Shown here piece after piece: positions 42,046 to 63,205 of a stretch of DNA of 63,616 nt (position 1 is its first letter; every line of letters starts with the position of its first letter). The translations under genes were made by a program, and so were the position numbers. The notes under the pieces were generated by a model. It ran no database searches, was not told the DNA's origin, and saw only the letters and a program-made list of their open reading frames with translations. Origin of the DNA: a virus (lineage: Duplodnaviria; Heunggongvirae; Uroviricota; Caudoviricetes); the IMG/VR virus record IMGVR_UViG_2851982317_000002; one strand, given 5' to 3'.

Positions 42046-42174
42046 ATGACAAGCCCGATTATTATGACACTGGCTATATTATATAGATTGATATTAAAAT
42101 GTAGGATTAGGTTCTTGCCAAGGTGTCAAGATTTACAGATAGGTTTAAAACCATATAAATATGTTTTACGGTGA
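42046..42174 (+). CDS. hypothetical small hydrophobic protein
   Basis: 42-aa ORF (MTSPIIMTLAILYRLILKCRIRF...) with GGAGGAG upstream, in the AT-rich leader of the NACHT-like gene; could be spurious. Confidence 0.2.
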   Translation: MTSPIIMTLAILYRLILKCRIRFLPRCQDLQIGLKPYKYVLR

Positions 42175-42238
42175 GATACAATACATATTGTAAGGCATAA
42201 ACGCTTGGTAAAATTTTAATTATTGGAAGAAGCTAATC

Positions 42239-45200: not shown

Positions 45201-46693
45201 GAACAAATTATAATCATTCTGATTGGTCTGGTTGCAAGTTTAATGAAACCCCTGTTGACCGTAAGCAAGTTTTTAAAACTTTCAAATGTAAACTAACTGA
45301 TCAACAAAAAGACTTGTATGATGCCACAGATCCTTTCATTTATGATGATAAATGCGAAGGAATTAAATTTGGTCGTGTGGTCGGTAGAAAAGCACAGGAA
45401 GAAATAAAGGCGAGCAAGAAATTATTTAAGAATTCATTGTCATACGATCTGTTAAGTGAGTTTGAAAATGAAATAGAGCCATACCTGGATCATAATAATA
45501 ATCTGCTGGAAACTGATAAACACTTTGATCTTCGACTAGCTCAACAATTTATATTCAATCGTGTTATAGAGCTTGGTTGGGATCCGGAGAAGCATGGTAA
45601 TTTTGACCAACAAATAGGAACTGGACGTGGACGTAGAGAGGCATTCCAAGAACGGATTGGTAAAAAATACCAATGGATTGCTTATTATGAATACATGGCA
45701 AGGCTAGCCGATAATTTTACTCGTTTTGAAGGTTATGGTGACGAACGAAAGGAAAATCCATACCAAGGGCCATGGGAGCCTTACGTAAGAGATATAGATC
45801 CCACTATCTTACTTAAAGAAACTGGAACGAAAAAAATAAGCAATAAAGAAATGTGGTGGCTTAATGATGAAGTGTTTGATTGGACTTGCTCTAATGAAGA
45901 CTGGGTTAAAAGTTCTACTACTATAACTAATTCATATGCTTTTATTGAAGTTAAAGATGATAATGGTGATGAATGGATAGTATTAGAAAGTCATCCATCA
46001 TGGAAAGAACCAAAAATTATTGGAAACGATGATTGGGGGCACCCACGAAAAGAGGTTTGGTATCAGATCAGAAGTTATATCGTTAAAGTTGAAGAATTTG
46101 AAAATTTTAGATGTTGGGCAATAGCTCAAGACTTTATGGGCAGGTGGATGCCGGAATGTACTGATAGATACCAATTATTTAATAGGGAGTACTATTGGTC
46201 CGAAGCATTTAAGTCTTTTAAATCAGATTATTATGGTGGATCTGACTGGACTTCGGTAACAGACCGGGAGTCTGGAGCTAAGATAGCTGATGTTAGTGTC
46301 ACTTCGATTAATTATTTGTGGGAAGAGGAGTTCGACAAATCAAAAATAGAAACTTTGAATTTTTTGAAGCCTAGTAACTTAATCTTTGAAAAGATGGGAT
46401 TAAAAAGTGGGGAAGTAGAGGGTAGCTTCAATGATGAAAATGGAACTATGGTTTGCTTTGCAGCTGAAGCTGTATATGCTTCAAAGCCGCATCTACTTGT
46501 TAAAAAAGAACCATTTTTAACAATGTTAAGGGACAATGGTTTTGAAATCGTTTGGACATTATTAGGTGAAAAGGGCGTTATAGGGGGCTCACTCATATCA
46601 AGTCATCATTATGGTCGACAGGAGTTTAGTGGAGCATTTTATTATGAAGACAGTCAGCTAACAGGAAGTCATAAAACTAGCTTTACGAGATAA
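42239..46693 (+). CDS. NACHT-like STAND NTPase, 1484 aa (candidate single-gene anti-phage defence protein)
   Basis: Single uninterrupted ORF; NACHT-type Walker A GKAGIGKS (aa 342-349; nt 43262-43285) and Walker B-like VLVFIDAINEG (aa 412-422); about 340 aa N-terminal and 850 aa C-terminal regions without recognisable motifs; AT-rich, located between tfa and attR. Confidence 0.75.
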   Translation: MEPISITVATYVATKLIDQFISQEGYGCIKKALFPQKRYVDRLYQLIEETAIEFEEIYPVESGAIPFYHSEPLFEMLNEHIFFKEFPDKEILLDKFKEYPSITPPTQQQLSLFYEMLSLKINNCSKLKKLHIEETYKEKIFDINEELIQVKLILRSIDEKLTFHLSDDWLNEKNSQAIADLGGRYTPELNVKLEIAEIFDGLGRTNDFSKIFYSHIDSFLVAGKKLHSCDVISSELFEINQSLKEISDIYQEINFSKLDEIPINKFNNYVSSCQTAIGGAVSILWELREKSEQVGETKHYSDKYSSTLRMLREFDYACNELRIFINSTTVKLANNPFLLLEGKAGIGKSHLLADVIKNRIASGYPSLLILGQQLTSDESPWSQIFKRLQLKITSREFLEKLNLYGKKTGKRVLVFIDAINEGNGNKFWNDNINSFVDEIRCFEWLGLIMSVRTTYRNVTISHENVVRNNFEIHEHIGFQNVELEAVSLFYDYYNIERPSSPNLNPEFKNPLFLKLLCEGIKKNGLTKVPVGFNGISNIFNFLVEGVNKSLASPKKYAFDPSFPLVKDALNEIIKFKLEIGRNSISLKDAHSVVQSVVNDYVADKTFLSALIDEGLLTKGIVRNDDNSTEEVVYVAFERFDDHLTVNFLLNDVENIESEFKPDGRLKKYFHDECDFYIKSGIVEALSIQLPERYEKELYEFLPEFSNNLKLLEAFIDSLIWRDIKAIDFEKIRPFINEHVFKFKDSFDHFLEAVISISGLVGHPFNANFLHDWLKDYSLANRDSFWTTELKYKYSEDSAFRHLIDWAWARTDKSFVSDESIELVATSLCWFLTSSNRELRDCSTKALVSLLEPRIPVLRKIIDKFYGVNDPYVWERIFAVALGCTLRTDNIKELKYLAETVYQKVFCSKYVYPNILLRDYAREIIEFANHLGLELESIELSKTRPPYNSIWPDKIPSKEELESLYDKEPYRELWSSIMEDGDFSRYTIGTNYNHSDWSGCKFNETPVDRKQVFKTFKCKLTDQQKDLYDATDPFIYDDKCEGIKFGRVVGRKAQEEIKASKKLFKNSLSYDLLSEFENEIEPYLDHNNNLLETDKHFDLRLAQQFIFNRVIELGWDPEKHGNFDQQIGTGRGRREAFQERIGKKYQWIAYYEYMARLADNFTRFEGYGDERKENPYQGPWEPYVRDIDPTILLKETGTKKISNKEMWWLNDEVFDWTCSNEDWVKSSTTITNSYAFIEVKDDNGDEWIVLESHPSWKEPKIIGNDDWGHPRKEVWYQIRSYIVKVEEFENFRCWAIAQDFMGRWMPECTDRYQLFNREYYWSEAFKSFKSDYYGGSDWTSVTDRESGAKIADVSVTSINYLWEEEFDKSKIETLNFLKPSNLIFEKMGLKSGEVEGSFNDENGTMVCFAAEAVYASKPHLLVKKEPFLTMLRDNGFEIVWTLLGEKGVIGGSLISSHHYGRQEFSGAFYYEDSQLTGSHKTSFTR

Positions 46694-47121: not shown

Positions 47122-47731
47122 ATTAAGAAAATCAATAACTTAGCTTAGCTTCTCTAAGAAATTGTATCTTCTGTTATCACTTACAAACGCCTATACGTTG
47201 TTATGGGCTTTGGTAGTGTAACACGTATGGGCGAGTAGTTCCCAGGCTCAACCTCGTAACAAGTTCCTTTGAAGCTGGAAGACGTGCCACCGTCTCTAAA
47301 CCTTCTACCAAAACTCTTAGCAAGATGTTCCACACCTGGCGCGGTGTCCAATGATGCTACACGTCGAGATGACGTTGCAGAGGATAAACAGGCTAAATGA
47401 TGGGAAGAGTAGTTTTAAGTGCATAGTGGATTAAAGCCCACCTCTTCAAAACCTAACTTGATCGGGAAAGAATCAAGCTCTAGCACGGTTTCGTCCACCG
47501 GAGTACAACGGGTGCCTGATAAGAGAAGAACTGCTAAGACTTCATAGCTTTTGTGAAAAAGCCCTTTTTAGTGGATACGCCTACGGCGCTTATTTTTTGG
47601 GGTAGCCCATCAAAGGCGCTTTATGGCTCCTATTGTCTTGAAAATGTATCTTTACTTGTATTGTGTTTTATGCGTAGTCTCCCTGTGTAGTATGTAACTT
47701 GTTAATTTTCATATGAATACAGAGGCACACG

Positions 47732-47896
47732 ATGAAAAACATTGCAGCTATCAAACGTAATAACCGCAAGATTCACGCTCGTAAGTTCCTGTCTACGCCA
47801 GAAGGAAAAGCCTGGCTAGAGCGTAAACAGAGAGAGAACGAAGAAAGAAAACTCCTTAGTGAGTTGAAAGTAAGCGACTCGTCAGAACCGTATTGA
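47732..47896 (+). CDS. small hypothetical protein, 3' end altered by IS66 insertion
   Basis: ATG at 47732 with AGAGG RBS; reading frame runs into the IS left end at 47870 (last residues now VSDSSEPY); joining the two target-duplication copies would restore ...SELKWLKD-stop. Confidence 0.4.
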   Translation: MKNIAAIKRNNRKIHARKFLSTPEGKAWLERKQRENEERKLLSELKVSDSSEPY

Positions 47897-47899
47897 TAT

Positions 47900-49471
47900 T
47901 TACTGAGAGCTCAGATCAACTTTCCAGGGCAACAGATCGCGTACCCGGTTTGCCGGCCAGTCCTGGATATGTTCAATGACGTAACGCAGCCACTTTTCTG
48001 GCTCCACATTGTTCAGACGGCATGTGCCGATCAGCGAGTACAACACCGCCGCATGTTCACCACCGCTGTCGGAACCCGCGAACATCCAGTTTTTCCGGCC
48101 TACGGCCACTCCCCGTAAGGCGTTCTCTGCGATGTTGTTGTCGATTTCCACCCAGCCATTACTGCAGTACACGTTCAGTGCATCCCACTGTTTCAGCAGG
48201 TATGCGAACGCTTTTGCCGTATCTGAGTGACGCGACAGTGTTTTCATCTGTTGCTGTATCCAGTCATACAGTGACTGCATCAGTGGCGCGGCTCTGGCTT
48301 TTCTTGCCGCCAGACGCTGTTCTGCTGAACAGCCCCGGACCTCTGCCTCGATGGCATACAGTTCACCGATACGCTGCAGGGCTTCCGTGGTGATGTAGGT
48401 GGGCGCTCTTGCATGCACATCGTGGATTTTTCTCCGGGCATGAGCCATACACGCGGCTTCCGTTATTCTGCCGGATTCGTATAACGCCCGGTAACCACCG
48501 TAAGCATCGGCCTGAAGCACACCGCTGTAACCGGCCAGGTGATTTTGTGGATGGATACCTTTCCGGTCCGGACTGTACGCGAACCAGACCGCCGGGGGCA
48601 TCTGTGAACCGGCGTTACGGTCATCACGGACGTAGACCCACAGCCGGGCTGTCCGGGTTTTACCGCTGCCCGGCTCCTGGACCGGGACGGGGATATCATC
48701 AGCATGGACTTTACCGGGCATCAGCACATACTGGCGCAGGACGTCATACAGCGGCTCCAGCAGTTCAGCAACAGCACCTGTCCAGCGCCCCAGTGTGGCA
48801 CGGCTCAGCTCCACTCCCTGACGACGGTATATTTCTGACTGGCGGTATAACGGCAGATGGTCTGCATATTTCCCGGTGACAACATGGGCCAGAAGCCCCG
48901 CTCCGGCATAACTGCGTGCAATGGGTTTTGAAGGTACTGGTGCCTGCACGATATGGTCGCACCGGCAACAGGCCTGTTTCGGACGTTGTGTTTCAATAAC
49001 CTTAAAGGCGCTGCTGATAAGCTCCAGTTGCTCTGACACATCACATCCCAGAGAACTGAGTTCACCACCACAGGCAGGACAGCATTCCTCTTCCGGCCGG
49101 ATAACCCGGGTTTCACGGGGAAGTGAGGCCGGTAACGGTTTACGGGCTGAAGACTGGCGCAGGGCGGATGGCAGTACCGGGTCATATTGCTCACCCAGCG
49201 TTTCCGCCATTTCTTCCTGAAGTGCGCTGATTCGCTCCTGTGCTTCCTGTATCTGCCGTTCGGTTTTTGCACGAAGTTTTTCTGAGCTTTTACCGAACTG
49301 CATACGTTGCAGTTTCGCAACCAGCGCCTTCAGCCGGTTGATTTCGGAAGCATAAGCCGCCACCCGCTGTGAGAGCAGGCGGTTGTATTCAGCCATCTGG
49401 CGGATGGTGTCCTGTTGCGTCTGCAACAGTGCCCGCAGGCGGGCGTTCTCATGAGCAAGTGAGGTGTCCAT
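47900..49471 (-). CDS. tnpC: IS66-family transposase (TnpC/Orf3)
   Basis: 523 aa; N-terminal leucine-zipper-like region, CxxC...C motifs (CCPACGG) and conserved IS66 transposase core. Confidence 0.85.
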
Positions 49472-49490
49472 ATCCTCACTTTACAACGGG

Positions 49491-49838
49491 TTATATGCGG
49501 ATTCCAGCGCGTTCCGTTCGTTTCGGGTGCTTCCAGTTGATACCTTCAAGAAGCATGGATAACTGAGCCGGAGTAAGGTGCACCTTGCCGTCACGGGTGA
49601 CTGGCCAGACGAAGCGGCCCCGCTCCAGGCGTTTGGTGAAGAGGCACAGTCCGTCACTGTCAGCCCACAACACTTTTATCTGGTCACCCCGGCGTCCGCG
49701 GAAGATGAACAGGTGTCCGGAGAACGGGTCATCCTTCAGGACGTTCTGAACTTTTGATGCCAGGCCGTTAAAGCCATTTCGCATATCGGTGATACCTGCA
49801 ACCAGCCAGATACGCGAACCTGCAGGGAGAGATATCAT
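49491..49838 (-). CDS. tnpB: IS66 Orf2 (TnpB)
   Basis: 115 aa, MISLPAGSRIWLVAGITDMRNGFNGLA... characteristic of IS66 Orf2. Confidence 0.8.
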   Translation of the reverse strand: MISLPAGSRIWLVAGITDMRNGFNGLASKVQNVLKDDPFSGHLFIFRGRRGDQIKVLWADSDGLCLFTKRLERGRFVWPVTRDGKVHLTPAQLSMLLEGINWKHPKRTERAGIRI

Positions 49839-50515
49839 CAGTGGCTGCTCCCTTTTATTTCGCGGATAAGTGTCTGTAATAACGCCGGCGTCAGTTTACC
49901 TTTAAGCCTGAGAGTTCCGGCCGGCAGAACCAGCTCACAACACAGACTGTCGGACGGTGTATTTATCTGCTCTGGTTCCTGTGCGGGGGCCGGGATTTTA
50001 TTATCCGGCTCCGGCGTTAACGTCACGGGAAGCAGTGCCGGCATATTTTTTCCGGAAGGCAGCAGGCCACCTTTCCGGTATTGATGGCGCCAGTTGAAGA
50101 GCAGGTTATCGTTGATTCCGTTTTCCCGGGCGATCTGCGCCACACAGGCTCCGGGCTGCAGTGACTGCTCCACTAAGGCGATTTTAAACTCATAAGGGAA
50201 GTTGGGCCGCCGGGGACGTTTTTTTACCACGGGGGCTTCGGATATAACGGTGCTTTCAGGACGTACGACTGGTACCGTGGAAAATTGTCCGTAAAGGCAG
50301 GCATCAAGTTCCTGCTCCGACATGCCTGCGGGCAAAGGCCACGAAAGGCCAGCTCTCCGAAAGCGCACGAACATACTACAAACTGTTGATTTTGGTACAC
50401 CCAGGCGACGCCCGGCCACAACCCGGGGTAAATGTTCTTCAAAGTGAAGACGTAAAGCTTCAGTGATCCAGGTCCGGTGTTTCATACGATAGTGTCCATT
50501 AAAAATGATGGACAT
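49838..50515 (-). CDS. tnpA: IS66 Orf1 (TnpA, HTH)
   Basis: 225-aa ORF overlapping the tnpB start; HTH-like region (FKIALVEQSLQPGACVAQIARENGINDNLLFNW); true start may be the internal ATG near 50485. Confidence 0.65.
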   Translation of the reverse strand: MSIIFNGHYRMKHRTWITEALRLHFEEHLPRVVAGRRLGVPKSTVCSMFVRFRRAGLSWPLPAGMSEQELDACLYGQFSTVPVVRPESTVISEAPVVKKRPRRPNFPYEFKIALVEQSLQPGACVAQIARENGINDNLLFNWRHQYRKGGLLPSGKNMPALLPVTLTPEPDNKIPAPAQEPEQINTPSDSLCCELVLPAGTLRLKGKLTPALLQTLIREIKGSSH

Positions 50516-50657
50516 TATTTTTGTAGAGCCGGAGGAAACAGACCAGACGGTTTAAATGAGCCGGTTACAGTTGAAATGGCTTAAGGATTGAATCACCAGT
50601 AGGCGCATAACACATCCAGCGATCAAAGATGTGTTTATGCGCCTGATAGTGAAATTA

Positions 50658-50816
50658 TTAAAGTCGTTTAGTTAACATCGCCATTGCTTGAGCAATAATT
50701 GCAACAGCGTCCATCTCTTCACTGGAAGCGATGCAAATGCGGTAACTAATAGCCACAATGAATACATCAATAACGAGAAAGTGAATAGTGTGAAGATGTT
50801 TTGAAAGTAAATGCAT
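50658..50816 (-). CDS. hypothetical small protein (52 aa)
   Basis: ATG 5 nt after GGAGG (minus strand); translation MHLLSKHLHTIHFLVIDVFIVAISYRICIASSEEMDAVAIIAQAMAMLTKRL done by hand; followed downstream by an imperfect 15-16-bp hairpin (50610-50651); not in the supplied ORF track (below 60 aa). Confidence 0.3.
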   Translation of the reverse strand: MHLLSKHLHTIHFLVIDVFIVAISYRICIASSEEMDAVAIIAQAMAMLTKRL

Positions 50817-51210
50817 AACTTCCTCCGGTTTTGGGATAGGAGGATTAGAACATGCATTAAATGATGTTGCAAGAATGGCAATTTACCCTAATAGTCTACT
50901 ATTCACCTCAATCTACGTCAACCAATATTTGATGTAGATTTAATTTTCTTTTAAAAACAATATGTTGTTATTTGTTGAATTTTGGGGTTAGGTTGTTTTT
51001 TGAACGTTTTCATCAAGTGTAAAGATACGTTTAGCCTTCATAGTGAGTTCAGTTACTGTCTTTTTCTCTGAAATCGGCGCAAACGTGATCATCGCTTGAG
51101 GTTGCTGCTCTTACTTCTCAAATTGTGATGGAGAACGATAAAGGTTAGAGGGCACTTTTATTTTTTTAAGCAAGTGTATAGCATAAGAATAATCTAAAAA
51201 GGGAGGTTAT

Positions 51211-51762
51211 ATGCGCAGGTCTGCATTTGTGAGGATGATGATTTTTACAACGTTGTTTGTAGGGGGAACTTCTACCGCAGTTGCTAAAAACTGCAAAAAA
51301 GGAATACCTTGTGGTAACTCGTGTATAGCTGTTGGTAAGACGTGCCGGATTGGCTCTTATGCCCCTTCATCTTATAAAAATCATTCATACTCTTATCCTT
51401 CATCCTCTATTCGAAGCTCGCAATCAAATAATTCACGAAAAACTGAAGGAGTGAAAACGACTCCTGCTGCCAAAAATTATCTTTGCCAATACTCTATTGC
51501 ATCAATCGAAAACGGACGTTTAGGGGCATTACGTGTTCAGGGATACGCACAAGTAACTTTATATGCAGATAGCTTCAAGGCTAACAGATTAAATGGAACA
51601 TATTTGATATCGCCAAAACTGAATGCTAACGGCAAGTTTATGATGGCAGATGATAAAAGCAAGGTTTATGCTTATGATTCTTGGCTATTAAATTTTGCAA
51701 TAAGCGATCGTATCACAAGAACGACAGAACAATGGGATCGATGTAAGCTCAATCAAAAATAA
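51211..51762 (+). CDS. hypothetical secreted protein (signal peptide, Cys-rich N-terminus)
   Basis: 183 aa; ATG 4 nt after GGGAGG; N-terminal signal-like MRRSAFVRMMIFTTLFVGGTSTAVA then CKKGIPCGNSCIAVGKTC. Confidence 0.5.
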   Translation: MRRSAFVRMMIFTTLFVGGTSTAVAKNCKKGIPCGNSCIAVGKTCRIGSYAPSSYKNHSYSYPSSSIRSSQSNNSRKTEGVKTTPAAKNYLCQYSIASIENGRLGALRVQGYAQVTLYADSFKANRLNGTYLISPKLNANGKFMMADDKSKVYAYDSWLLNFAISDRITRTTEQWDRCKLNQK

Positions 51763-52158
51763 CAGTTAGAGAAGCTCTTGTAGAGGCATTATTGAGTTAT
51801 TGGTTTTAATATTTTTGTGCCTCTATGGGCTTTTTTTGCCTTTTTGCAAAGTAGGAGAGAGCACAGGAATCGTTAAAATTAATTATTGGGGTATTTAAGG
51901 TTATTTTCAGGTGGTTTAAGGGTATTAAACTTGATTTAATTGATTAAAATATAAACAGATAGCCCTGCATCTTATTGATTTATAAGGTTATTTTTAAATT
52001 AAGGTAAATAAAAAATAAATAGCCATAAATAGCTATAAATACATCTAAATACCTTTATCCCTTCCCTTATGGCTAGATTGCGAGAAGTGCTTAACGCGAT
52101 TTTCACCGCCCCCTGATCTGGAAAATCCAGAATCCCCAAATATCAGCAAGGAATTTTC

Positions 52159-52452
52159 TTGCGTAATCAACATCGTTTTTACCTATTAAATCATTACACA
52201 GAAAGCCTTTCTGTAATGTCTCTCACTAAACTTTCACTAAACACGAGAATGATCGGTTTTATGTCGGATCAGATGCTAGAAACAGCACCACGTCTCACAA
52301 GGGCTGTAAGCGATGAAACCAGTGTTTATGCGGGTGCAGGTCAAAATATGGGCCAAAATCCATTTAACATAATAATCGTAATATGCACTAAGGAACACAT
52401 AGAACGCCTTGAGTTGATGTATCAGGGGAAAAGTGGTGGATTTTTTACGTAG
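52159..52452 (+). CDS. hypothetical protein
   Basis: 97-aa ORF in an AT-rich region; no RBS or motif support. Confidence 0.2.
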   Translation: MRNQHRFYLLNHYTESLSVMSLTKLSLNTRMIGFMSDQMLETAPRLTRAVSDETSVYAGAGQNMGQNPFNIIIVICTKEHIERLELMYQGKSGGFFT

Positions 52453-52916
52453 GAGCACGAGAGGGCTTCTATTGACTTTTGTATGCTATGAAATATAATA
52501 GAAGGTTTTTTATTTTTATGTTGATAGTGATTGCACATTAAAGATTGAAAGCAAATTTAAACATAAATTTTCAACACGTGAAAGAAACTTGTTCGACAAA
52601 TAATAGATTGATTTTTAATCAACAATTTCTGATAGTGCGCTGTAGCCGCATTACACAAGGCTTTGCGAAAGTGATGTAAAAGTGAAGAAAGTAAGAATTG
52701 CACTTTTAAGCTACTTTTCATTGAATTTTTACGTAGGAATTACACAGGGATTAATCATCAATTACATTGAATTTAAGCCTGTTTTAGATGTTTAATTTTG
52801 GTAGCAAGAAACACTTTTAGAAGATCATTGCACAGATGTTATGTGATAAATGGATGTAACGGTAGGTCACTGTGAGCTACCCCTATCAAGTCTGATACCC
52901 GATAAGTATAAATAAC

Positions 52917-53019
52917 ACCTGGGAAATGAGTTCCGATCTATTTAGGAAATAACCGTGGAAGTGGTTTCCTACCTACCTAGGAAATGAGTTCCTATCACCT
53001 AGGAAATGATTTCCGACAA
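52917..53019. repeat. array of four palindromic (T)AGGAAAT(G/A)A...TTTCC motifs followed by a very AT-rich stretch
   Basis: Motifs at about 52921, 52944, 52979 and 53000 (GGGAAATGAGTTCC, AGGAAATAACC...GGTTTCCT, AGGAAATGAGTTCC, AGGAAATGATTTCC), then AT-rich 53020-53090. Confidence 0.5.
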
Positions 53020-54122
53020 TACTATAATTAAACTACAATTAAACTATATAATATAATTCTTTTTTATCTTTATAAGAATAATTATAGGGATACCCGTTAG
53101 GGAGTCTAACGACTATCCCTTAATCTATTGGCATTCGCCAGAACCTTGCACAAGTTAGAGTGTTAGTCGTTAGACTGCTTGTCATAACACATAGTTTTTG
53201 TTTGTTGATGTTAGTTAGTAGATCTATGTTCGCTAATGCCGCTCACAACGAATATGTAATCTACTATGTGCAAATAGCCTACGGCTTGCGTAAGGCTAAA
53301 TAGTCTTGCGCTGTGCGCAGAACGATAATTAACTAACTACCATCTAACGATTGAAATTTACTTGTGCAATAACCTGAGCGTAAGCGAATGGTTGTTAGTG
53401 TCTATGCGCTGTGCGCTTCAATAGTTCCATTGATGAGGCTTACGCCAATCTAACGATCATCAATCTATTTAAGAGAAAATCTATTGTGCAATACTCTGAC
53501 GAGTGCAATAACCTTGTGTGCTACGCGTTAGCGATGTTAGCACATAGACACAGACAACAACCAACAACAAACAAAAAAGAATGGTTTTAGTAGTTGAAGG
53601 TTAAATAAGTTTCTACCGCTTAAATCAAGCCGTAGGCGAGCTAAACGTATATAAGGCAGGGAAACCTTAGCGGTAATAGATTAGCTCATTATAGAGCTTC
53701 TGAGGAGCTTTACAGGTATTTTATAAGGTGTCTGAAATTAGAGTTTATCTATCATCTCCTTTTCATATACCTAACAAATACAAAATAAGCCCCTTAAATA
53801 AACCTCTGGCGAGCTAAACTGTCATTACATAAGGGAATGTATTGTTTTTATCAAAACCTCGTTAGAACGCGTTTTAGAGAATAAGGAAGAATAGCATCAC
53901 ACAGAAGAGCACGAATTGCTAAGCAAAATCATAACATACTGAAAAATGATCAATATTTTATGGGTGGGGGTTGACAAAAGCCTTTAGTTATGGTAAAGTA
54001 ATATTAGGGACAGGAAAACATTCCTATCCTCTAAATAATTAAACCAATGCACCGCACTTTGAAGCCCAAGAGGCTTGCAAGGTGTCTTTTTCTTTTAACC
54101 AAATAGAATAGGAGGTTAATTA

Positions 54123-54299
54123 GTGAAGTATTTCACTTCTCAAGATGTAGTTGAAGCCTGGAAACGTGGTGAGATCAACCGCTTTAGGGTAAGAATGAAT
54201 AGGAACACAGCGCGACGCTGTGGTTATCCAGAGCGTGAAAAATGTTTTGACGATGCACTAAAAATTATTGATGAACTGCGTAAAGCAGAGAAAGAATAA
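54123..54299 (+). CDS. hypothetical small protein (58 aa)
   Basis: GTG start 7 nt after AGGAGG; hand translation MKYFTSQDVVEAWKRGEINRFRVRMNRNTARRCGYPEREKCFDDALKIIDELRKAEKE; not in the ORF track (below 60 aa). Confidence 0.35.
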   Translation: MKYFTSQDVVEAWKRGEINRFRVRMNRNTARRCGYPEREKCFDDALKIIDELRKAEKE

Positions 54300-54322
54300 T
54301 AACAGGAGAAGGAGAAAACCAA

Positions 54323-54511
54323 ATGAATATTAATTTTGATTCTGCAACTTATAACGCGTTGTTAAATCGTGCAAAGGCAGAAGGGAAATCAATTCCAAAA
54401 CTTGTTAATGAATTACTAATTACAGTCCTTACAAAGGAGGAACTAAATGATCAAAAATATCAAAACAATTGCCGAAGCGAAAGCCAAATGTCTAAATCAG
54501 AAAGATGGTAA
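54323..54511 (+). CDS. hypothetical small protein, possible ribbon-helix-helix regulator
   Basis: 62 aa; AGGAGAAGGAGA RBS; N-terminal YNALLNRAKAEGKSIPKLVNELL resembles an RHH/CopG-like fold; overlaps the next gene by 65 nt. Confidence 0.4.
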   Translation: MNINFDSATYNALLNRAKAEGKSIPKLVNELLITVLTKEELNDQKYQNNCRSESQMSKSERW

Positions 54512-55115
54512 ACAAAAATATGTAGTCGTTGAGCAGTGGTTGAAGATGTTTAAAAAGTGGTTCTCACCGTCAGGTAATGAATACACCGCTACACTGCCAG
54601 CCGTTGAAATCTATAGCTATATAGCTGGATTCAATGAACAAGGGCAAGAATGTTACGCCACTCAAAAAACATTATCTAATATTGGAATGGTTAGTGATCG
54701 CCAGGTTCGCAATATTATAAATATGTTTGTTGATATGGGAGTTCTTTCTGTAGAGGCTCGGGACGGGCAAACATCACTCTATAAAGCATTACCATTCACA
54801 GATGCACATATTACTCCCCCTGGAGAGTCATCACTACCTGATCCTTCTGAGAAAGAAGACGAATCTAATGAAATATTGAATGTTTCAGAAATCATCATTG
54901 AAGAAGAAACACAGGAATCAGAGTTCCCTGAGCGGCCCGAAATTTTTACTTGGCTTCTTTCCCTTGATAAGAAGAAACCACCGCACGAAGAAACAGAAGA
55001 TTTTGTAAAACGAGCATTAGATTCAAAGAATATCTATCTTTGTGAAAATGATTTTGACTCTTTGATAATTGATCTCAAAAGTGAGAGCACAATATATGAT
55101 TCACTACCCTTTTAA
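54447..55115 (+). CDS. hypothetical protein with HTH-like segment
   Basis: 222 aa; strong RBS AAGGAGG 6 nt upstream; HTH-like TQKTLSNIGMVSDRQVRNIINMFVDMGVL; acidic C-terminal half. Confidence 0.5.
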   Translation: MIKNIKTIAEAKAKCLNQKDGKQKYVVVEQWLKMFKKWFSPSGNEYTATLPAVEIYSYIAGFNEQGQECYATQKTLSNIGMVSDRQVRNIINMFVDMGVLSVEARDGQTSLYKALPFTDAHITPPGESSLPDPSEKEDESNEILNVSEIIIEEETQESEFPERPEIFTWLLSLDKKKPPHEETEDFVKRALDSKNIYLCENDFDSLIIDLKSESTIYDSLPF

Positions 55116-55381
55116 GGAGAATAAATGGCTTATAACATCACTATAGGAAACAAAACTATTGAAATAACTGAGAGCGGATACCACATTTTAAAAGCTATTT
55201 TGGAAATAGAGTTCTCACCGCCGACAGTGGTTAGCTTTTAGGGTTTAGCTCCTATCATCATTTTTTGGGATTTAACGCTTTCAATAATTGTGTAGGTGGT
55301 GCATCGGAAGTCGATCTGATGGCTCATTTAGAAGATACATTAGCTTCTAACAAACGTTCTAACTAATAAAATGATGGGTGT

Positions 55382-55627
55382 ATGTATAAGCGCCCAATGA
55401 AAATATTCGAAAAAGGAAAAATAATGATTGGCTATATTCAAGAAACACAATTATTTCAGATGATCCTGTCTGATGCAAAAAACTATGCTGAGTTAATCCG
55501 ACTGGCAAAAGAAACAGAAGACTACGAAGCATTAGAGCGTTATCGTGATGAAGTGCTGACGCTCAAGACACCTTTTAACATCGTATTGAATATGATTAAT
55601 GATGCATTACAAGGAGAAGCCGCATAA
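55382..55627 (+). CDS. hypothetical protein
   Basis: 81-aa ORF; start ambiguous (ATG 55382, 55397 or 55424; the last has the best RBS). Confidence 0.35.
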   Translation: MYKRPMKIFEKGKIMIGYIQETQLFQMILSDAKNYAELIRLAKETEDYEALERYRDEVLTLKTPFNIVLNMINDALQGEAA

Positions 55628-55935
55628 TGGAAGAAGATATTAGCAATGCAATGGAACAACTTTTAGATCTGACTATCTCACTACAAACAAGAATAAATCA
55701 AGCCTATTCAGATTTATGCGATTACACGCTCTCTCAATGCGTTATTAGCTTAATGAAGGTGAATGTAAGCCTTGACGATTTTATCTCTCTGGTGAGCGAT
55801 TTAGAGCTAATTGAGGACGATGCCAAGATGTGCACTCAAACCATCACAGACACCGCCAGCACGTTAAAGGCTGCAAGTGAAGAGATTCAGCAATTAGTAG
55901 ACGATTTAGCAAAAAGTGCTATTTTCTCTAAATGA
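55627..55935 (+). CDS. hypothetical protein
   Basis: 102 aa; AGGAGA RBS; TAATG overlap with the upstream ORF. Confidence 0.4.
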   Translation: MEEDISNAMEQLLDLTISLQTRINQAYSDLCDYTLSQCVISLMKVNVSLDDFISLVSDLELIEDDAKMCTQTITDTASTLKAASEEIQQLVDDLAKSAIFSK

Positions 55936-56919
55936 TAATGAAAATAATTTGCATTTATAACGATTTCATTATATAATGATATTAGGGGTAGATAAAAAGG
56001 TTTTGACTGGTGTTAATCCTTCTACTGTCATAAATCCCTGCATATGGAAGGTGATAGCCTCAAAGGTTGAGTGGCATTAACCTCTAACAAATATTACCTT
56101 CCATCTCTCAAGAAGTTTTAGAATAATCATAACTCCCTCTTTGATTGTTGATTGTTTCTACGTTGTGTTGATGAATGTTGTTAGGCATTGTGCTTAATTT
56201 TGATAAAAGCGGGTAGGTGTTATCTCCTTGCCCTTCCCGCTCTTATTTTTCATCTATGCTTATCCTAAAGCTCCTTATTTTGTCAGAAAATATTAAAGAG
56301 CCTTACACTGATAGTTATATTTTATAACTATTTACTAACATCATTAAACTATTATTTAATGACAGAAGTTAGTAACAGAATAATCTATTAAGTTGTTGTC
56401 AAAAACAATCATCTGCATAGCGTTAGCCGCAAGCAGAGAGAGTTTAGCTAAGAATGGTGCAATAAACTTTGGAAATATTGATAGCAAAACGGGTTTTATA
56501 GAATGCGGATCTATAAGCTTTGGTTGTAAAAACGATTTTCTGAAACGGTAGATTACTGTTGGTGTAGTTAATCATTATTAAAAATTTAATCTGTGAGTAG
56601 ATTGGAATAGTGATTCCTTAAAATCTGACTGGTGCATCCACACCATGAAAGATAGCGGTTGGCCACCGCGCCCCGAATAGATATTCCTGATTGATTCCGC
56701 ATGTTTTCCTAAGAGCATGTTTTCAGGAGTATCTATTCACCCTTTAAGCATATCATCAAGTATATTTAAAAAGTGTATTTGCTGATATGTTTAATCCTCT
56801 TATAGTTTAACTTATCAATTATGTAATTGCCCGCACGTTAAAGCCCCTTTGCTGGTCAGAATTAACCTCTTACGGCATTGGGGCTTTTTATTTGTCTGGC
56901 ACTAACAGGAACGTTATTT

Positions 56920-57117
56920 ATGAAACAAGAAATGATTATCAGCAAAGACGGGGAAACGATGATTGTTAGTGATGAAAACCTCATTAAGGTTGCCGCACTG
57001 TTGGGAGTTACTCCCGAAAGTCTTCGTTCTACCACTGCTCAATTATTTAAATCGGCTGATGCGGTTAGTCTTGCTGATGCCCTTAAATCTAAAATTAAAC
57101 AACTGAAAGGAAAATAA
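56920..57117 (+). CDS. hypothetical small protein
   Basis: 65 aa from the ATG at 56920 (track TTG at 56878 lies inside an upstream hairpin); first gene of a six-gene same-strand cluster. Confidence 0.4.
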   Translation: MKQEMIISKDGETMIVSDENLIKVAALLGVTPESLRSTTAQLFKSADAVSLADALKSKIKQLKGK

Positions 57118-57121
57118 TCTT

Positions 57122-57505
57122 ATGGCTAACCCATATGGAAAATTAAAAGTAGTGAATGCGGATAACTCCCGTTCACGCTGTAAGGTAGTAGCTTACGCTG
57201 CTGATCCAGTGCTGCAAGATCGCCTCGTCAAACTGGCTTCACCTCTCACTGACGATCTTATTGTCGGGGCTTTGCTGAAAGCCGATGGCACCAAAGCAAC
57301 AACCGCATCTGATATTGCTCACGTAGTAGTTGAACCGGCTTATGAAGGACAGGAAAGCGTAGTGGTTGCACATCCTACTTTCGTTATTCTGGCTGAAGAT
57401 GGGATTGAATTTAACAGCATGGAAAAGGCAAGTGTTATTGCAAAACTGCAATCTCTCGGCTTTGTAATTGCTGGTTATGAAGAACTTGCGATCCCTACGA
57501 CTTAA
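57122..57505 (+). CDS. hypothetical protein
   Basis: 127 aa; AAGGAAAA RBS; 4-nt spacing from the upstream gene. Confidence 0.5.
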   Translation: MANPYGKLKVVNADNSRSRCKVVAYAADPVLQDRLVKLASPLTDDLIVGALLKADGTKATTASDIAHVVVEPAYEGQESVVVAHPTFVILAEDGIEFNSMEKASVIAKLQSLGFVIAGYEELAIPTT

Positions 57506-57519
57506 CAAGGAAAATAATA

Positions 57520-58551
57520 ATGAATGATTTATCAACATATTTTGGCGTTAATACTGCGGTAGTAACTCCTTTTGCTTATGAGAATGCACTTAATACCCTG
57601 ATTACTAATCTCGATCTGTTCGATGTGCAATATCATACAGAAAACAGCATTCTTCTTACCGACCTGATTGATCAGTTTGTGCAGGTAGCTGGGGAAACCT
57701 CGCCTTACGCTCAAAGCGACTGGAACGCCTCTAAACGTCAGGAATGGTCAAACAAACTTTTCCAGATGAAACACGTCGGCAGTATTAACGCTGTTACTTC
57801 TCGTGACCTGGAACAATACAGCCGCCAATATCCAAACCGTTCTGATGCTATGCTGGTAGCGGTTAATGATTTCTCTGAGGCTCATTACCGTTCACACGCA
57901 AACCGTGTTGAAGTGGATCTGATTACCGCGCTGCTGGGCCTGAAAGTTGAATCTGAATATGCCGGACAAGGTGATCTCGACTTCCTCGACGGTCAGGCTA
58001 AAACCACGGTACCCGCTATCGACTTTGCATCGACAACTGTTAACCCGTTCCTTGCTATTCGTAAAGCGGTGCGCTTACAGAGTGAAAAGCTGGGGTCTGG
58101 TCTTGCTGCAAAGCGAACTGGTGTAATTATCTTTGCTGCTGGCGCTGCTGCTGATGGTTTGTCATCTAACCCGCTGATCAGTGACATGGTGAAATATGCA
58201 GGCGATGCGAGTGCTACGGCCCTGTTTACCCGTATGGTTGATTCTAACCCAGCCTATGACTCTTTCCAGATTGGTGGGATCACTGTTATTGATGTGTCAA
58301 TGTTTCCTGAGATTGTTGCTCACATCGGAGAGAACGGTTTCGCAATTGTTCCGGTAATGGATAAAGCGGCACAGTGTTACCAGCTTCATAGCGGCGTTGG
58401 TGTGCGTCATGCTGAGTTAGGTCAAGATGCCGTGTTGCATCACCAATATCTAATCAAGGATGAATTCCAATTCCCATCTGTGGTTACTGAGACATCTTAT
58501 CTGCCAGTAAACAACATTCCGCAAGCTATCATCTTCGGATCTGCTGCGTAA
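57520..58551 (+). CDS. hypothetical protein (possible phage structural protein)
   Basis: 343 aa; AAGGAAAA RBS; no catalytic motif; position ahead of a small ORF and a tape-measure-like gene suggests a major tail or capsid-type protein, but this is inference only. Confidence 0.5.
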   Translation: MNDLSTYFGVNTAVVTPFAYENALNTLITNLDLFDVQYHTENSILLTDLIDQFVQVAGETSPYAQSDWNASKRQEWSNKLFQMKHVGSINAVTSRDLEQYSRQYPNRSDAMLVAVNDFSEAHYRSHANRVEVDLITALLGLKVESEYAGQGDLDFLDGQAKTTVPAIDFASTTVNPFLAIRKAVRLQSEKLGSGLAAKRTGVIIFAAGAAADGLSSNPLISDMVKYAGDASATALFTRMVDSNPAYDSFQIGGITVIDVSMFPEIVAHIGENGFAIVPVMDKAAQCYQLHSGVGVRHAELGQDAVLHHQYLIKDEFQFPSVVTETSYLPVNNIPQAIIFGSAA

Positions 58552-58702
58552 TAAAGCGTTAATAGACGATTCCCCATCGGGGCAATAAGGGTAAAGGGAT
58601 TAACTAACCTGTAGGCGCAAATACAGTAACGAATCTCTTTGCCCTTTTTGTTTTTCTACTGTCTACAAACCCAAATAAAAATATATATGTGAGAGAAAAC
58701 CA

Positions 58703-58900
58703 ATGAATACAGAAAACCCACAATCCTTTATTCTTAAGGCTGTAAAAGAACTGGCAGCTATTAGCGATGACTCAATAATCAATGTCAGTGCCTTATGCAG
58801 AATGCTTTCAATTGATGCAAATAATGTGCGGCAGCGTGTGTTTCAGACTGGGTGCAGCACTTTTGAGGCAATCCAATATTATTGCTCTAAAAAACAATAA
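58703..58900 (+). CDS. hypothetical small protein
   Basis: 65-aa ORF between the 343-aa and 633-aa genes. Confidence 0.35.
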   Translation: MNTENPQSFILKAVKELAAISDDSIINVSALCRMLSIDANNVRQRVFQTGCSTFEAIQYYCSKKQ

Positions 58901-58934
58901 CAAACAATAATCATAATACAGGGAAACAATTAAC

Positions 58935-60836
58935 ATGTTAGAAATTACCGCCTCACGAATTAGTAATGTTGTGACATTTACCACTGATTTCAAGAGCTTA
59001 CAGAAAGCTAAGAATGAAGTGGATAAGCTACAAAAGAAGATGCAGGGGATCAAACCTGTGCAAGTGGCGGCAGCACGTCAGAAAGATTTACAGAGGCTGG
59101 GAAAAGAGATTCAGCGCCAGCATGATCAGCATGTTAAGCGGGCTGTTAAATCTGAGACACAGGCATCTAAAGCCAGCACTAAACAGAAGCTACAGGAAGC
59201 TAAAAACCTCGCTAAAGCACAGGCTAAACAAGCCTCAATTGCTGAAAAGGCAGAGATCAAGCGCCTTGCATCATATCGCCAGTTACAAGGCATCAAGAAC
59301 AATTCCCGCTATGGCGAAGGGATGGATATTAAGAAATATCACGATGCTCTACGTTACATTAAGGAACAAACCCGCCTCTATGAATCCGGCGCTATATCGC
59401 AAGCGAAGATGAATGCCCTGATCCGTGACCGCATCACATTAGAAAGACGAGCCGCAGCCGCTGCTACGCGTCGTAATGCTGCCGCTGGGGGTGTATATCC
59501 AGTTACTTCTAAGAAGCTCCACAAAGAAGGTGTTAGCGGCGGTGGCGCGTTAATGATGGGCGGTGTTGGTGGCATTATCGGCGGCGCTGCCGTTGGCTTA
59601 GGAAGTATGGCTGTATCTGCTGGAATGGAAAAAGCCCGTGAACGTATGGAATTGCAGAAGATGAGCGATCTGGTAGGCGCAGACTCCAACCAGGTGGCTG
59701 CAATGGTTAATTGGGGGAGGGCAAACGGTGTATCAAGTGCAAGCGTGGACAAGACCACTGACAATATCAAAGACTTAAACGAACGCATTGGTCATCAAAG
59801 CCGAACTGCTGAATGGGATAGTAAGAAAAAAGAGTGGCGAGGCGGGGAAGGATCATTAAATGATATTCAGAATGCCTTTGCATGGAACAAAGATAAGATA
59901 GCTTCCTACCAGGGGCGACCGCTGCAACTCCTGCAAGACGTGGTGAGAGAAGGTGAACGCCGAGGAATGACTAAAGAAGCCATCATATCCCTGATCGAAC
60001 CATTAGCAGACGATGCCAGCCATTATCTCAAGATGTTTTCCCGTGATGGGGAAGAGTTCCGTAAAACGATGGTTGATATGGAAAACAACGGGCAGCTACT
60101 GACAGAAGCACAGAAAGAGCAATATCGCGCAGCTAACAAGACAGCTACAGCCTTTGACCGTCTGACAGATGGACTATCGAATCAGGCTATTTTGGGCTTC
60201 TTTGATGGCATAGCCAACATGCCAGCACTCAAACCGGAAGAAAGCAAAGCCTTACAGAATGCAGCTTATGGTGTTGGTGCATCGTTCGGGGATTTGGCTA
60301 AACAAGGCGCTGTATTACTGACCTCTATGACTTCTTACGGGAATCAAATCACAAGCTGGATTAATAAACATCTTAGCCGTGGTGAGAATGATAACCGACC
60401 TGAGACACAAAAGGTTATGGACGCTGTTACAGATGGGGAATGGTCGCCATCAACGATTATCAATGAAGGTATTCGTTATGCAACTGGACTCGATACGAAA
60501 GATGTAGGGCGTATTGTGCGCGGTGAGGAAACACAGTCCGGCGTTCCAGGGTGGTGGACTGATTTAATTAATGGCAATGCTAACAGCTACGGATCAACCC
60601 TTGTTGCACGTAAAGCAGAAGCCTATCAGCCGACTGTAAGCCTACAACGTCAATACGCAACTCCTGTTAACGTGAATGCACAGGTTACGGTGCCGAGTGA
60701 TATGATCTCTGTTAACGTCATCCCTAACGGTCCCGGCTTTCAGGATTTAATCCGCACTGAGATCAGAGCGAACAACAATCAGTTTAGTTCGAATCTGATT
60801 CTTAGCACGTTGTCAGGACAGAGTAGCGTTAACTAA
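58935..60836 (+). CDS. tape-measure-like protein (coiled-coil N-terminus + Gly-rich hydrophobic segment)
   Basis: 633 aa; N-terminal Lys/Gln/Ala-rich coiled-coil-like region, then GGGALMMGGVGGIIGGAAVGLGSMAVSAG; overall composition reminiscent of small tape-measure or pilot proteins. Confidence 0.5.
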   Translation: MLEITASRISNVVTFTTDFKSLQKAKNEVDKLQKKMQGIKPVQVAAARQKDLQRLGKEIQRQHDQHVKRAVKSETQASKASTKQKLQEAKNLAKAQAKQASIAEKAEIKRLASYRQLQGIKNNSRYGEGMDIKKYHDALRYIKEQTRLYESGAISQAKMNALIRDRITLERRAAAAATRRNAAAGGVYPVTSKKLHKEGVSGGGALMMGGVGGIIGGAAVGLGSMAVSAGMEKARERMELQKMSDLVGADSNQVAAMVNWGRANGVSSASVDKTTDNIKDLNERIGHQSRTAEWDSKKKEWRGGEGSLNDIQNAFAWNKDKIASYQGRPLQLLQDVVREGERRGMTKEAIISLIEPLADDASHYLKMFSRDGEEFRKTMVDMENNGQLLTEAQKEQYRAANKTATAFDRLTDGLSNQAILGFFDGIANMPALKPEESKALQNAAYGVGASFGDLAKQGAVLLTSMTSYGNQITSWINKHLSRGENDNRPETQKVMDAVTDGEWSPSTIINEGIRYATGLDTKDVGRIVRGEETQSGVPGWWTDLINGNANSYGSTLVARKAEAYQPTVSLQRQYATPVNVNAQVTVPSDMISVNVIPNGPGFQDLIRTEIRANNNQFSSNLILSTLSGQSSVN

Positions 60837-60909
60837 GTTTAACGATAACTAATAATAAAGCGGGGGCAATATTTATTGCTTTCCGCTCATTACACAAGGA
60901 TTAATATAA

Positions 60910-61566
60910 ATGGTTATCAAAGAAAGTCAGATCAACAGCACATCTAACATTAATACATCTAACAGCAAGGTTAAATCTGATAACGGATTTGCCATTATAT
61001 GTAGCAACCTGAATAACGAAAATGCATCAACGATAGCCAGTTATAAAGCTATTACTTTTGACGCTGTTCCGGCAACTAAGGTTTCACGTTCTGCCGATGT
61101 TACATCGTATCCTGTGCAGGATGGTAATGATGTATCTGATAATGTCAGGATCAAGAATAATAAACTTATGCTTTCAGGCATTATTACAGAAACACCATTA
61201 GCATTACGTGGTGATATGCTATCAAGTGCAGGGGTGAACGGTAACAGGTGTTCACAGGCTATTACTTATCTTGATGAAATAATGAATGCCAGACAGCCTA
61301 TTATTGTAAGCACAGAGCATAAGACGTTTGATAATATGATTCTGACAGGCATTGACTACGAATATAAAACAGAATCAGCTTTACAGTTTGATTTGCAGTT
61401 CGAACAGATAAGATTAGTGAGTTATGCAACTACTAACGCTATTGCTGTAAAGACCGCATCACCTAAGAGCACAGGCGGACAGGTAAAAAGCCGAGTGCCA
61501 ACCAATGCAGGAACAGCCAGCACCACTAAAGACACCCTTCCGACGTATGACGGAGAAGTGAAATAA
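60910..61566 (+). CDS. hypothetical protein
   Basis: 218-aa ORF, last gene of the cluster before the integrase. Confidence 0.45.
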   Translation: MVIKESQINSTSNINTSNSKVKSDNGFAIICSNLNNENASTIASYKAITFDAVPATKVSRSADVTSYPVQDGNDVSDNVRIKNNKLMLSGIITETPLALRGDMLSSAGVNGNRCSQAITYLDEIMNARQPIIVSTEHKTFDNMILTGIDYEYKTESALQFDLQFEQIRLVSYATTNAIAVKTASPKSTGGQVKSRVPTNAGTASTTKDTLPTYDGEVK

Positions 61567-61640
61567 TCCCTATAAAGAACGATGTAGCGAGATAATCATA
61601 AAAGAGGCTACCAATCTATGTTGAAGCCTCTTTATTGCGT

Positions 61641-62918: not shown

Positions 62919-63009
62919 AAAATCTCCGGCTAAAGTGTCGGAGCGTTTGTAATGTGAAAATTGATTGTGACGCATAGAAAATGATGATTTTTCTATAAGA
63001 TTCAATCAA

Positions 63010-63081
63010 TTAGTAATGGTCGTAGGTGATGGCATTAACACGAGATTAATCGAGTGTTTTACTCCTATTATCGGCACCATT
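63010..63081 (+). repeat. degenerate thrW 3' fragment (pseudo-tRNA / right att remnant of element 2)
   Basis: 63061-63081 ACTCCTATTATCGGCACCATT is identical to the thrW 3' end; upstream ATTAGTAATGGTCGTAGGT resembles ATTCGTAATGCGAAGGTCGTAGGT, separated by about 30 unrelated bp. Confidence 0.6.
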
Positions 63082-63205
63082 AAAATCAAAGAGTTACCCC
63101 ATATTTAAATACACCACGTTTCCTCCTGTGCCGTATTTGTGCCATTGTAACCTTGGCAATTCATCAAAATACTGTTCTGACATCAGGCAGTGCAGGTGCA
63201 GACAT

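Follow-up and report, generated by a model that had tools for sequence, protein, structure and literature searches.

A probable replication and expression control region, with a putative lambda-like iteron origin, in a satellite-like island of Escherichia coli

The window analysed here is a stretch of 63,616 nt from IMG/VR (record IMGVR_UViG_2851982317_000002), and it matches the E. coli E2528-C1 chromosome with 100% identity. Its right part contains a low-GC island, element 2, in which a region of ~1.6 kb (65% AT overall) precedes an operon encoding a 222-aa winged-helix protein. It is probable that this region is the non-coding control region for replication and expression of the 11-12 kb island, and that it consists of an origin, a hairpin tract and a gated promoter. 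As an origin it falls within the known iteron-origin kind; the island is apparently undescribed but widespread.

The original prediction, made from the sequence of the window, described four copies of a palindrome followed by an AT-rich stretch, and proposed a cluster of protein-binding sites with a DNA-unwinding element as a candidate replication origin. The four copies of the palindrome, GGAARTNNKTTCC, are at 52922-52934, 52957-52969, 52980-52992 and 53002-53014, with start-to-start spacing of 35, 23 and 22 nt. A search for the motif elsewhere found no other match in the 63.6-kb window, where 0.15 matches are expected and none of 100 shuffled sequences reached four. The AT-rich stretch (53020-53090) is 86% AT and holds the most AT-rich 60-nt window of the island. 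There are 2.4 copies of an 11-nt repeat unit, ACTACAATTAA, at 53021-53046. The features of the origin core and its candidate initiator are as follows; strand is given where it applies.

52922-53014: four palindromic iterons GGAARTNNKTTCC, unique in the window, whose type co-varies with the N-terminus of the initiator
53020-53082: AT-rich tract with short direct repeats, 89% AT; an equivalent tract follows each iteron type in relatives
53077-53129: inverted repeat (I3) beside the AT-rich tract, arms 53077-53100 and 53106-53129, 24 nt, 75% complementary
54447-55115, plus strand: helix-turn-helix protein of 222 aa, initiator candidate

The order of iterons, AT-rich tract and usually an inverted repeat recurs in relatives from Klebsiella, Enterobacter and Cronobacter, with different palindromes. 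In the Klebsiella and Enterobacter relatives an analogous inverted repeat follows the AT-rich tract. The predicted origin is supported for 52905-53130 by the co-variation of iterons and initiator and by the constant AT-rich neighbour. This segment is well supported as a theta-type, lambda-ori-like iteron origin, as far as sequence comparison can tell, and 53020-53082 is its putative DNA-unwinding element.

The co-variation was observed among 66 loci with at least 1.5 kb of upstream sequence, taken from E. coli genomes, IMG/VR, metagenomes, Klebsiella, Enterobacter and Cronobacter. The N-termini of the initiators were classified, and six palindrome patterns were counted upstream. Five N-terminal types pair with five palindrome types, nearly one-to-one.

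Type R1 (LexA-like): five copies of ACAGAAn2-4TGTTA, 15 of 15 loci
Type R2: GGTCAn3-4TGAnC
Type R3 (the type of the window): two to five copies of GGAARTNNKTTCC, 17 of 18 loci
Type R4: GTAACGn3-5KTAC; the Cronobacter initiator, just 60% identical, has the related site GTAACGn4GGTAC
Type R5 (Klebsiella and Enterobacter): ACATCAn3TGATGT

The gene p58, which lies between the sites and the initiator, is shuffled among these types. All four E. coli types occur with p58 alleles at least 91% identical to that of the window, and two initiator types are also found with p58 alleles of 74-79%. The pairing of iterons with initiators survives this shuffling, and therefore shared descent alone is not a sufficient explanation for it. 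The GGAARTNNKTTCC palindromes are likely to be binding sites for the winged-helix N-terminal domain of the 54447-55115 protein.

The initiator has three parts: an N-terminal winged helix that varies, an acidic linker, and a C-terminus that is conserved and ends in ...YDSLPF. It is modular: the N- and C-terminal domains cluster separately, and the linker and C-terminus are common to most E. coli variants. All five N-terminal types tested match PHROG families annotated as "replication initiation / O-like" (E-values from 1e-9 to 1e-3), and the Pfam HTH_36 model scores just under its cut-off. Sequence searches for a relative with a solved structure found none.

Several observations weigh against an origin served by this protein. 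The PHROG matches (phrog_270, 391, 678 and 8102) are weak and cover the winged helix only, and the NCBI names for homologues are "helix-turn-helix" or "transcriptional regulator". Two loci, L003 and L022, bear extra non-cognate arrays beside the cognate one, and the rearranged locus L163 has an initiator with no array within 2.6 kb. Unlike in lambda, the origin is 1.4 kb upstream of the initiator gene, and PHROG and Pfam scans recognised no helicase or loader gene in the island of the window.

Operator-repressor pairs co-vary as iteron-initiator pairs do. The palindromes might accordingly be operators, and the 222-aa protein a repressor or immunity factor which governs a local promoter and has no part in replication. 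The database names "helix-turn-helix domain-containing protein" and "transcriptional regulator" point in this direction. A leftward promoter-like site, TAGACT-16-TATAAT (53108 to 53081, minus strand, 10 of 12 consensus matches), is located within the I3 repeat and abuts and faces the AT-rich tract; in L003 the -35 element of the matching promoter-like site falls inside a cognate palindrome. The array is, however, ~1 kb from the main promoter without overlap, and it is always joined to the AT maximum. The five tested N-terminal types match initiator families and not repressor families, and a DEAD-box helicase occupies the initiator slot in a Citrobacter relative. The conserved acidic C-terminus with its tip like that of SSB (the protein that binds single-stranded DNA) lacks an obvious role in a repressor. 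We consider an exclusively regulatory role unlikely; initiators often autoregulate, so the two readings can coexist.

If the palindromes are iterons, dimers of the O-like initiator would bind the four sites through the N-terminal winged helix, and the nucleoprotein complex would then open the adjacent AT-rich tract; recruitment of host replication proteins would follow. One possible route of recruitment is the acidic linker together with the SSB-tip-like C-terminus (...DSLPF in the window, DFDIPF in relatives). Among 77 initiator tails, 54 end in PF after an acidic stretch (YDSIPF, YDSLPF, DFDIPF, DFDLPF and FELPF; 55095-55115 in the window, and L003, L005, L021 and L026). The tip of E. coli SSB, DDDIPF, binds PriA and other replication proteins (PMC5531588). 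Primase also docks on this tip. By this analogy, the resemblance of the tail to the SSB tip is a lead for the recruitment of host proteins.

In lambdoid phages, the N-terminal domain of the initiator is exchanged together with its sites. A domain and its sites likewise appear to be swapped as a module in the island family. In the origin of lambda, an AT-rich tract adjoins four iterons, which are imperfect inverted repeats of 19 bp, and two iterons with the AT-rich tract are enough for unwinding (PMC7466680). The island shares with it the array of four close imperfect inverted-repeat sites at a spacing of about two helical turns, the AT-rich tract flanking the array, and a cognate initiator, as judged from co-variation only, whose N-terminal domain sets specificity. 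It differs in that the sites are 13-nt cores instead of 19 bp, and in that the array at 52922-53014 is upstream of the initiator gene (54447-55115) and not inside it. Further differences are the lack of a recognisable P-like helicase loader, the DSLPF/DFDIPF tail of the initiator, and the long hairpin-repeat tract after the origin.

The origins of Staphylococcus aureus pathogenicity islands (SaPIs) and of phage-inducible chromosomal islands (PICIs) in general have island-specific repeats and an AT-rich tract matched to their own initiator, with many interchangeable specificity classes. The island of the window resembles them as a satellite-borne origin with island-specific repeats, an AT-rich tract and its own matched initiator. 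SaPI initiators are helicases, the origin is just 3' of rep, and repeats are present on both sides of the AT-rich tract. In contrast, the 222-aa winged-helix protein of the window has no helicase domain, the origin is upstream, and the repeats are one-sided, so that the arrangement is not that of a rep-ori.

Two further observations concern the origin and the initiator. In L003 (E. coli O26 RM10386), positions 9823-10280 contain a composite origin with three GTAACG sites, the GGTCA type, one ACAGAA site and four GGAAAT sites in a row, and the cognate GGTCA-type sites flank the AT-rich tract on both sides. This composite looks like a trace of repeated cassette recombination. Phage muut, a 146-kb phi92-like myovirus of the genus Justusliebigvirus, encodes a protein, gp154, with two winged-helix domains in tandem, and residues 30-122 of the initiator, which form its winged helix, share 89% identity with the second of them. 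The domain is also found in BI-EHEC, inny and Mt1B1_P17. A small gene directly precedes gp154, in parallel to the small gene before the island initiator. The iteron motif is absent from the 62 kb of muut examined, and the paired-iteron pattern in IMG/VR matches only satellite-type contigs. There is gene exchange between the island and such phages, PaulScherrer and VEcB (see p62 below) included, and they are candidates for a helper or antagonist role.

To the right of the origin, the original prediction listed CGTTAG/CTAACG pairs and two other repeated motifs. The pairs are indeed enriched, with six copies in 53090-53540 versus 0.13 expected (~50-fold; P ~5e-9). The two copies of GCGCTGTGCGC are both exact and are at 53308 and 53406, whereas the first had been placed ~47 nt away at 53261. 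Two of the three proposed copies of TGTGCAATA are exact (53363 and 53485); the third, at 53503, is the variant aGTGCAATA. One more TGTGCAA-bearing copy, TGTGCAAATA, is at 53267. All these right-hand motifs (GCGCTGTGCGC, TGTGCAATA and CTAACG) are outside the iteron array and outside the leader of the operon, and they belong to a separate conserved hairpin-repeat tract.

53195-53577: long-range inverted repeat (I2) bracketing the tandem units, arms 53195-53216 and 53556-53577, GT-rich versus CA-rich, 22 nt, 86% complementary
53238-53332, plus strand: conserved module of ~95 nt, with CCGCTCACAAC, hairpin(s) and TTGCGCTGTGCGCAGAA
53262-53580: three diverged tandem units of ~98-122 nt (repeat families D4, D7, D17 and D18)
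53635-53819: unit of 173 nt bounded by an exact 12-nt direct repeat, GGCGAGCTAAAC (family D19)

Each tandem unit begins with TGTGCAA(A)TA, and two of them carry GCGCTGTGCGC and CTAACGAT. The number of units varies by strain, and unit-sized deletions are observed in relatives (53319-53399, 53352-53447 and 53403-53521). The 173-nt unit is missing from many relatives, with a gap at 53647-53789 in L005, L009, L010, L013 and others.

Across genera, the ~95-nt module consists of CCGCTCAYAAC, an outer stem TTGTGCA...TGCACAA around two small hairpins, and then ATAGACTATTGCGCTGTGCGCAGAA; in genera other than that of the window it forms a three-way junction. Within the outer stem and one inner hairpin, RNAalifold found six pairs in which both partners had changed. 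The other hairpin shows compensatory variants by eye (AGC/GCT, AGCC/GGCT, AGGC/GCCT and AGGGC/GCCCT). A covariance model built only from types other than that of the window matches 53238-53332 on the plus strand (26 bits, E=4e-4). In most elements searched, the model gives a single significant match (E<0.01), on the plus strand and at an equal relative position. There is no match in the distant islands L025 and L029 or in the phage locus, and the copy in L002 reaches just E=0.14. The model finds this segment in most elements searched, and therefore GCGCTGTGCGC and TGTGCAATA are pieces of a family-conserved hairpin module. The interval 53130-53650 holds hairpin-forming repeat modules conserved in the family and always placed between the origin and the operon. 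Two observations should be added to those weighing against the proposed control region: the three-way junction and outer stem are degenerate in the window's own copy of the module, and the forward and reverse consensus folds of the tract score alike, with no strand preference.

A tentative possibility is that ~53130-53650, a tract with greater length in relatives, is the gene of a large structured non-coding RNA that would found a new family. Compared with shuffled controls, the two strands of 53075-53600 fold far better (z = -4.9 and -5.9), and nested hairpins with compensatory changes are found across genera. Loops of the GNRA type (GTAA and GTGA) are present on the plus strand in several types, the single copy per element is always on the plus strand, and a conserved open reading frame (ORF) is absent. 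Against an RNA, no conserved promoter or terminator brackets the tract, the folds of the two strands score alike, the units are freely gained and lost, and the junction stem is lost in the type of the window. Symmetric protein sites can also mimic covariation. The Rfam 15 covariance scan gave nothing better than E=0.99 in 48000-63616 of the window and no relevant match in eight related loci at E up to 1.

About as probable as a structured RNA is that the tract, as a single strand, has an auxiliary role in priming or primosome assembly once the origin is opened. Single-strand initiation (ssi) signals, G-sites and primosome assembly sites are hairpin clusters a few hundred nt beside plasmid origins, for example downstream of oriR of R1. 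The hairpin cluster of the island is similarly to one side of the origin, and CTG in the loop of the GCGC-TGT-GCGC hairpin fits the start triplet of primase. Different from those signals, the tract has no similarity to plasmid records and no detected strand bias. Satellite P4 has, in addition to its ori, a second cis element, crr, of ~120-bp direct repeats. The 98-122-nt direct repeats beside the origin of the island are comparable in this respect. The crr of P4 carries the ori iterons and is bound by the alpha primase-helicase, whereas the island units lack the GGAAAT iteron and the island encodes no alpha-like protein. A more far-reaching version, to which we give a low probability similar to that of the RNA, is that the tract (0.5-0.9 kb) is a new single-stranded element, either a structured RNA or a single-stranded DNA priming platform. 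It would act with an SSB-mimic initiator recruiting PriA or primase for a satellite without helicase and loader, and the island would represent an undescribed class of enterobacterial satellites.

Sites of the cosB and pac types typically consist of repeated sites in arrays with bends. The island has a capsid gene, and PHROG and Pfam scans of ten island ORFs detected no terminase or portal. A packaging signal (cos or pac) for the terminase of a helper phage is for these reasons another candidate for the repeat/hairpin tract. A distant-mode comparison of the 1.66-kb region with 50,697 phage records revealed no similarity, the most conserved 45-mer of the tract gave only matches at chance level, and the tract is strongly diverged between genera with the hairpins retained. 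A packaging site is decidedly improbable, and it ranks below both the single-strand role and the structured RNA.

The operon promoter is at the right end of the region.

53971-53999, plus strand: main operon promoter TTGACA-17-TAAAGT with extended-minus-10 TG, at a conserved position before p58
54054-54096, plus strand: intrinsic terminator in the leader, hairpin 54054-54085 and T-tract 54087-54096

In nearly all loci, the TTGACA(A) promoter precedes p58 by 138-156 nt; the 47 distinct leaders that show this come from all genera. The leader contains a first hairpin and then the GC-rich terminator hairpin, and the T-tract ends ~15 nt before the ribosome-binding site of p58. RNAalifold analysis of 16 diverse leaders found 12 pairs, of which five show compensatory changes; the G.U pairs hold on the plus strand only. 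With its GC-rich hairpin, T-tract and covariation, 54054-54096 has the properties of an intrinsic (rho-independent) terminator. The most distant islands, L025 and L029, have a different GC hairpin and T-tract at the equivalent place. The alternative in the original prediction, a strongly regulated promoter or non-coding RNA locus, is borne out to the extent that a promoter and a terminator-bearing leader exist; they are elsewhere in the interval, at 53971-54096, and neither the palindrome array nor GCGCTGTGCGC and TGTGCAATA are in the leader.

The terminator is between the promoter and p58, and therefore transcription of the initiator operon should stop after ~90 nt without read-through. Expression of the initiator would need read-through or antitermination at this terminator-ended leader, and the terminator is a plausible checkpoint of induction or a point of control by a helper phage. 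The arrangement is similar to PR'-tR' of lambda, in that a strong promoter of constitutive appearance has an intrinsic terminator within ~90 nt after it, and the operon comes next. It differs from PR'-tR' in that no Q-like gene or Q-binding element was identified in the island.

In support of the original statement that no convincing ORF spans the region, the interval carries no annotation in all 488 E. coli RefSeq genomes containing it. Five to six small ORFs within the gap are intact solely in near-identical copies, indels of 98, 106 and 119 nt between strains would disrupt any reading frame, and no conserved ORF was found among the relatives compared. These relatives were found through capsid homologues (44-84% identity); they are from Klebsiella, Citrobacter, Cronobacter and Enterobacter, and from further chromosomal sites in E. 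coli. With p58 as the query, a metagenome scan added 54 loci. A contig scan with a single capsid protein as the query gave no matches, and a gapped DNA pattern scan of contigs gave nearly all chance matches with one genuine locus (L063).

The family layout is a gene-free gap of 1.6-2.4 kb, then p58 and a small gene, and after these, in the slot of the 222-aa protein, a protein of ~190-310 aa. The internal order of the gap is kept in islands of E. coli, Klebsiella, Enterobacter, Cronobacter and Citrobacter. The gap in E. coli is a mosaic of blocks. Block A (52581-52880) is kept across the mosaic variants, a cassette of ~145 nt (52884-53026) is swapped wholesale among strains, units of 98-119 nt come and go in Block C (53027-53646), and the promoter-proximal block is conserved as far as Klebsiella. 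The low GC content, the many small ORFs and the frequent indels could be taken as signs of decayed coding sequence or intergenic junk. Such decay is extremely unlikely, given a gap with constant internal order across five genera whose capsids are just 44-56% identical, the strong motif enrichments and the lack of any conserved ORF.

The left arm of the region contains two features.

52472-52499, plus strand: sigma-70 promoter-like site TTGACT-16-TATAAT, directed toward the origin, 11 of 12 consensus matches
52581-52880: Block A, non-coding, left of the origin, with ATTGCACA/ATTACACA motifs in a single orientation and one TAGGTCACTGTGAGCTA palindrome at 52865-52881

The promoter-like site is limited to island variants with this left arm (L002 and L009 share the arm). 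Block A is 78-97% conserved in nearly all E. coli-type relatives, irrespective of the DNA to its left. Of the 12 copies of TTGCACA/TGTGCAA in the window, six are within 52531-53491 (P ~2e-7); three are rightward on the left of the origin, and three are leftward on its right. Motifs of the ATTGCACA type (52531-53504) converge on the origin with three to four copies per side and are unchanged with the initiator type. Klebsiella islands show by eye an equivalent symmetric layout of another motif, TTGCAT on the left and ATGCAA on the right (L022 4656-5830).

DnaA boxes were considered for the TGTGCAA repeats, which fit TTWTNCACA at 8 of 9 positions, and were rejected; the window as a whole has about one match of this quality per 500 nt (123 found versus 132 expected). 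A Xer/dif-like core was also rejected. By eye TGTGCGCAGAA fits the XerC arm at 9 of 11 positions, with no XerD arm after it, and it was judged a chance match.

The opposite orientation of the ATTGCACA motifs on the two sides of the origin bears on a further alternative, in which the region is an invertible or recombination switch run by a flanking small serine or tyrosine recombinase. Most relatives indeed encode a small recombinase on the opposite strand to the left of the gap, either a 183-aa serine recombinase of the resolvase family or a tyrosine recombinase of 186-192 aa, and the two are interchangeable (L004 741-1292, L006 1037-1615, L022 3835-4395 and L020 2838-3389). The same slot in the window (51211-51762) encodes a 183-aa protein with a signal-peptide-like N-terminus, as judged by eye, and no recombinase; the island nevertheless keeps the whole region. 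No segment was inverted relative to its flanks in more than 60 loci, with only a 34-nt extra inverted copy in some. Multimer resolution beside an origin accounts for the recombinase equally well, and the resolution of multimers of a replicating circle is its simplest role. An inversion switch is very unlikely.

In all island types, a motif of the TTACAGAGCGTTTTAGA form or its GCGTTTTAGA core is seen by eye 90-290 nt upstream of the main promoter (53708-53730 and 53862-53885 in the window; L003 11085-11250; L022 5955-5990), in tandem in the O26 island. These motifs are possible activator or repressor sites.

The left end of the window contains thrW (tRNA-Thr, 1369-1444), the sole tRNA found in the ARAGORN scan. 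It is followed by the tail region of a lambdoid prophage, the Avs2 defence gene, an IS66 copy and then the low-GC island. The Avs2 (AVAST type 2) gene and the IS66-family element, between the prophage and the island, are at about 42000-46500 and 47700-50515. These elements are in series, and therefore tandem mobile elements occupy the thrW site. In an ST131 strain, the same island, of 11 kb, is directly beside thrW. CP4-6 of K-12 shares the chromosomal site with the island, yet it is a different element.

The island extends over ~51-63 kb with 35-40% GC, and it ends with a tyrosine integrase (61641-63005) adjoining the yagP/paoD genes. The first genes of the operon, before the initiator, are the following.

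54123-54299, plus strand: p58, 58 aa, GTG start at 54123, first gene of the operon
54323-54511, plus strand: p62, 62 aa, mechanically listed ORF

The p62 ORF overlaps the start of the initiator gene by 65 nt (54447-54511) and has no RefSeq annotation in this strain. The corresponding gene in relatives is annotated with a length of 168-171 nt, and over 92 nt the p62 gene is 97.8% identical to a gene of phages PaulScherrer and VEcB. Further products on the plus strand are several small unknown proteins, a capsid protein, a tape-measure-like protein and a Dit-like protein. The capsid protein is lambda-gpE-like, and its relatives bear the Pfam domain Phage_cap_E. The genes for this capsid, the 633-aa tape-measure-like protein and the Dit-like distal tail protein, at 57520-61566, are an unusual set for a satellite. 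The island has genes of the capsid and tail type without a detected terminase or portal, and therefore it looks like a phage satellite, that is, an integrative, phage-satellite-like element as judged from its gene content. No description of the island family was found in the literature searched.

These results would locate the origin and the specificity determinant of a widespread island. Its DNA is present in about 9% of complete E. coli genomes, and relatives are found in Klebsiella, Enterobacter, Cronobacter and Citrobacter. The matched initiator/iteron classes, at least five in number, may represent a natural set of orthogonal replicon modules, and they would explain the coexistence of related islands. 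If a helper phage switches the island on, a concrete candidate for where it does so is the terminator-gated promoter. The SSB-tip-like end of the initiator offers an idea of how a very small initiator may recruit host replication proteins. It is the hairpin tract and this SSB-tip-like tail that give the origin its interest beyond the known kind.

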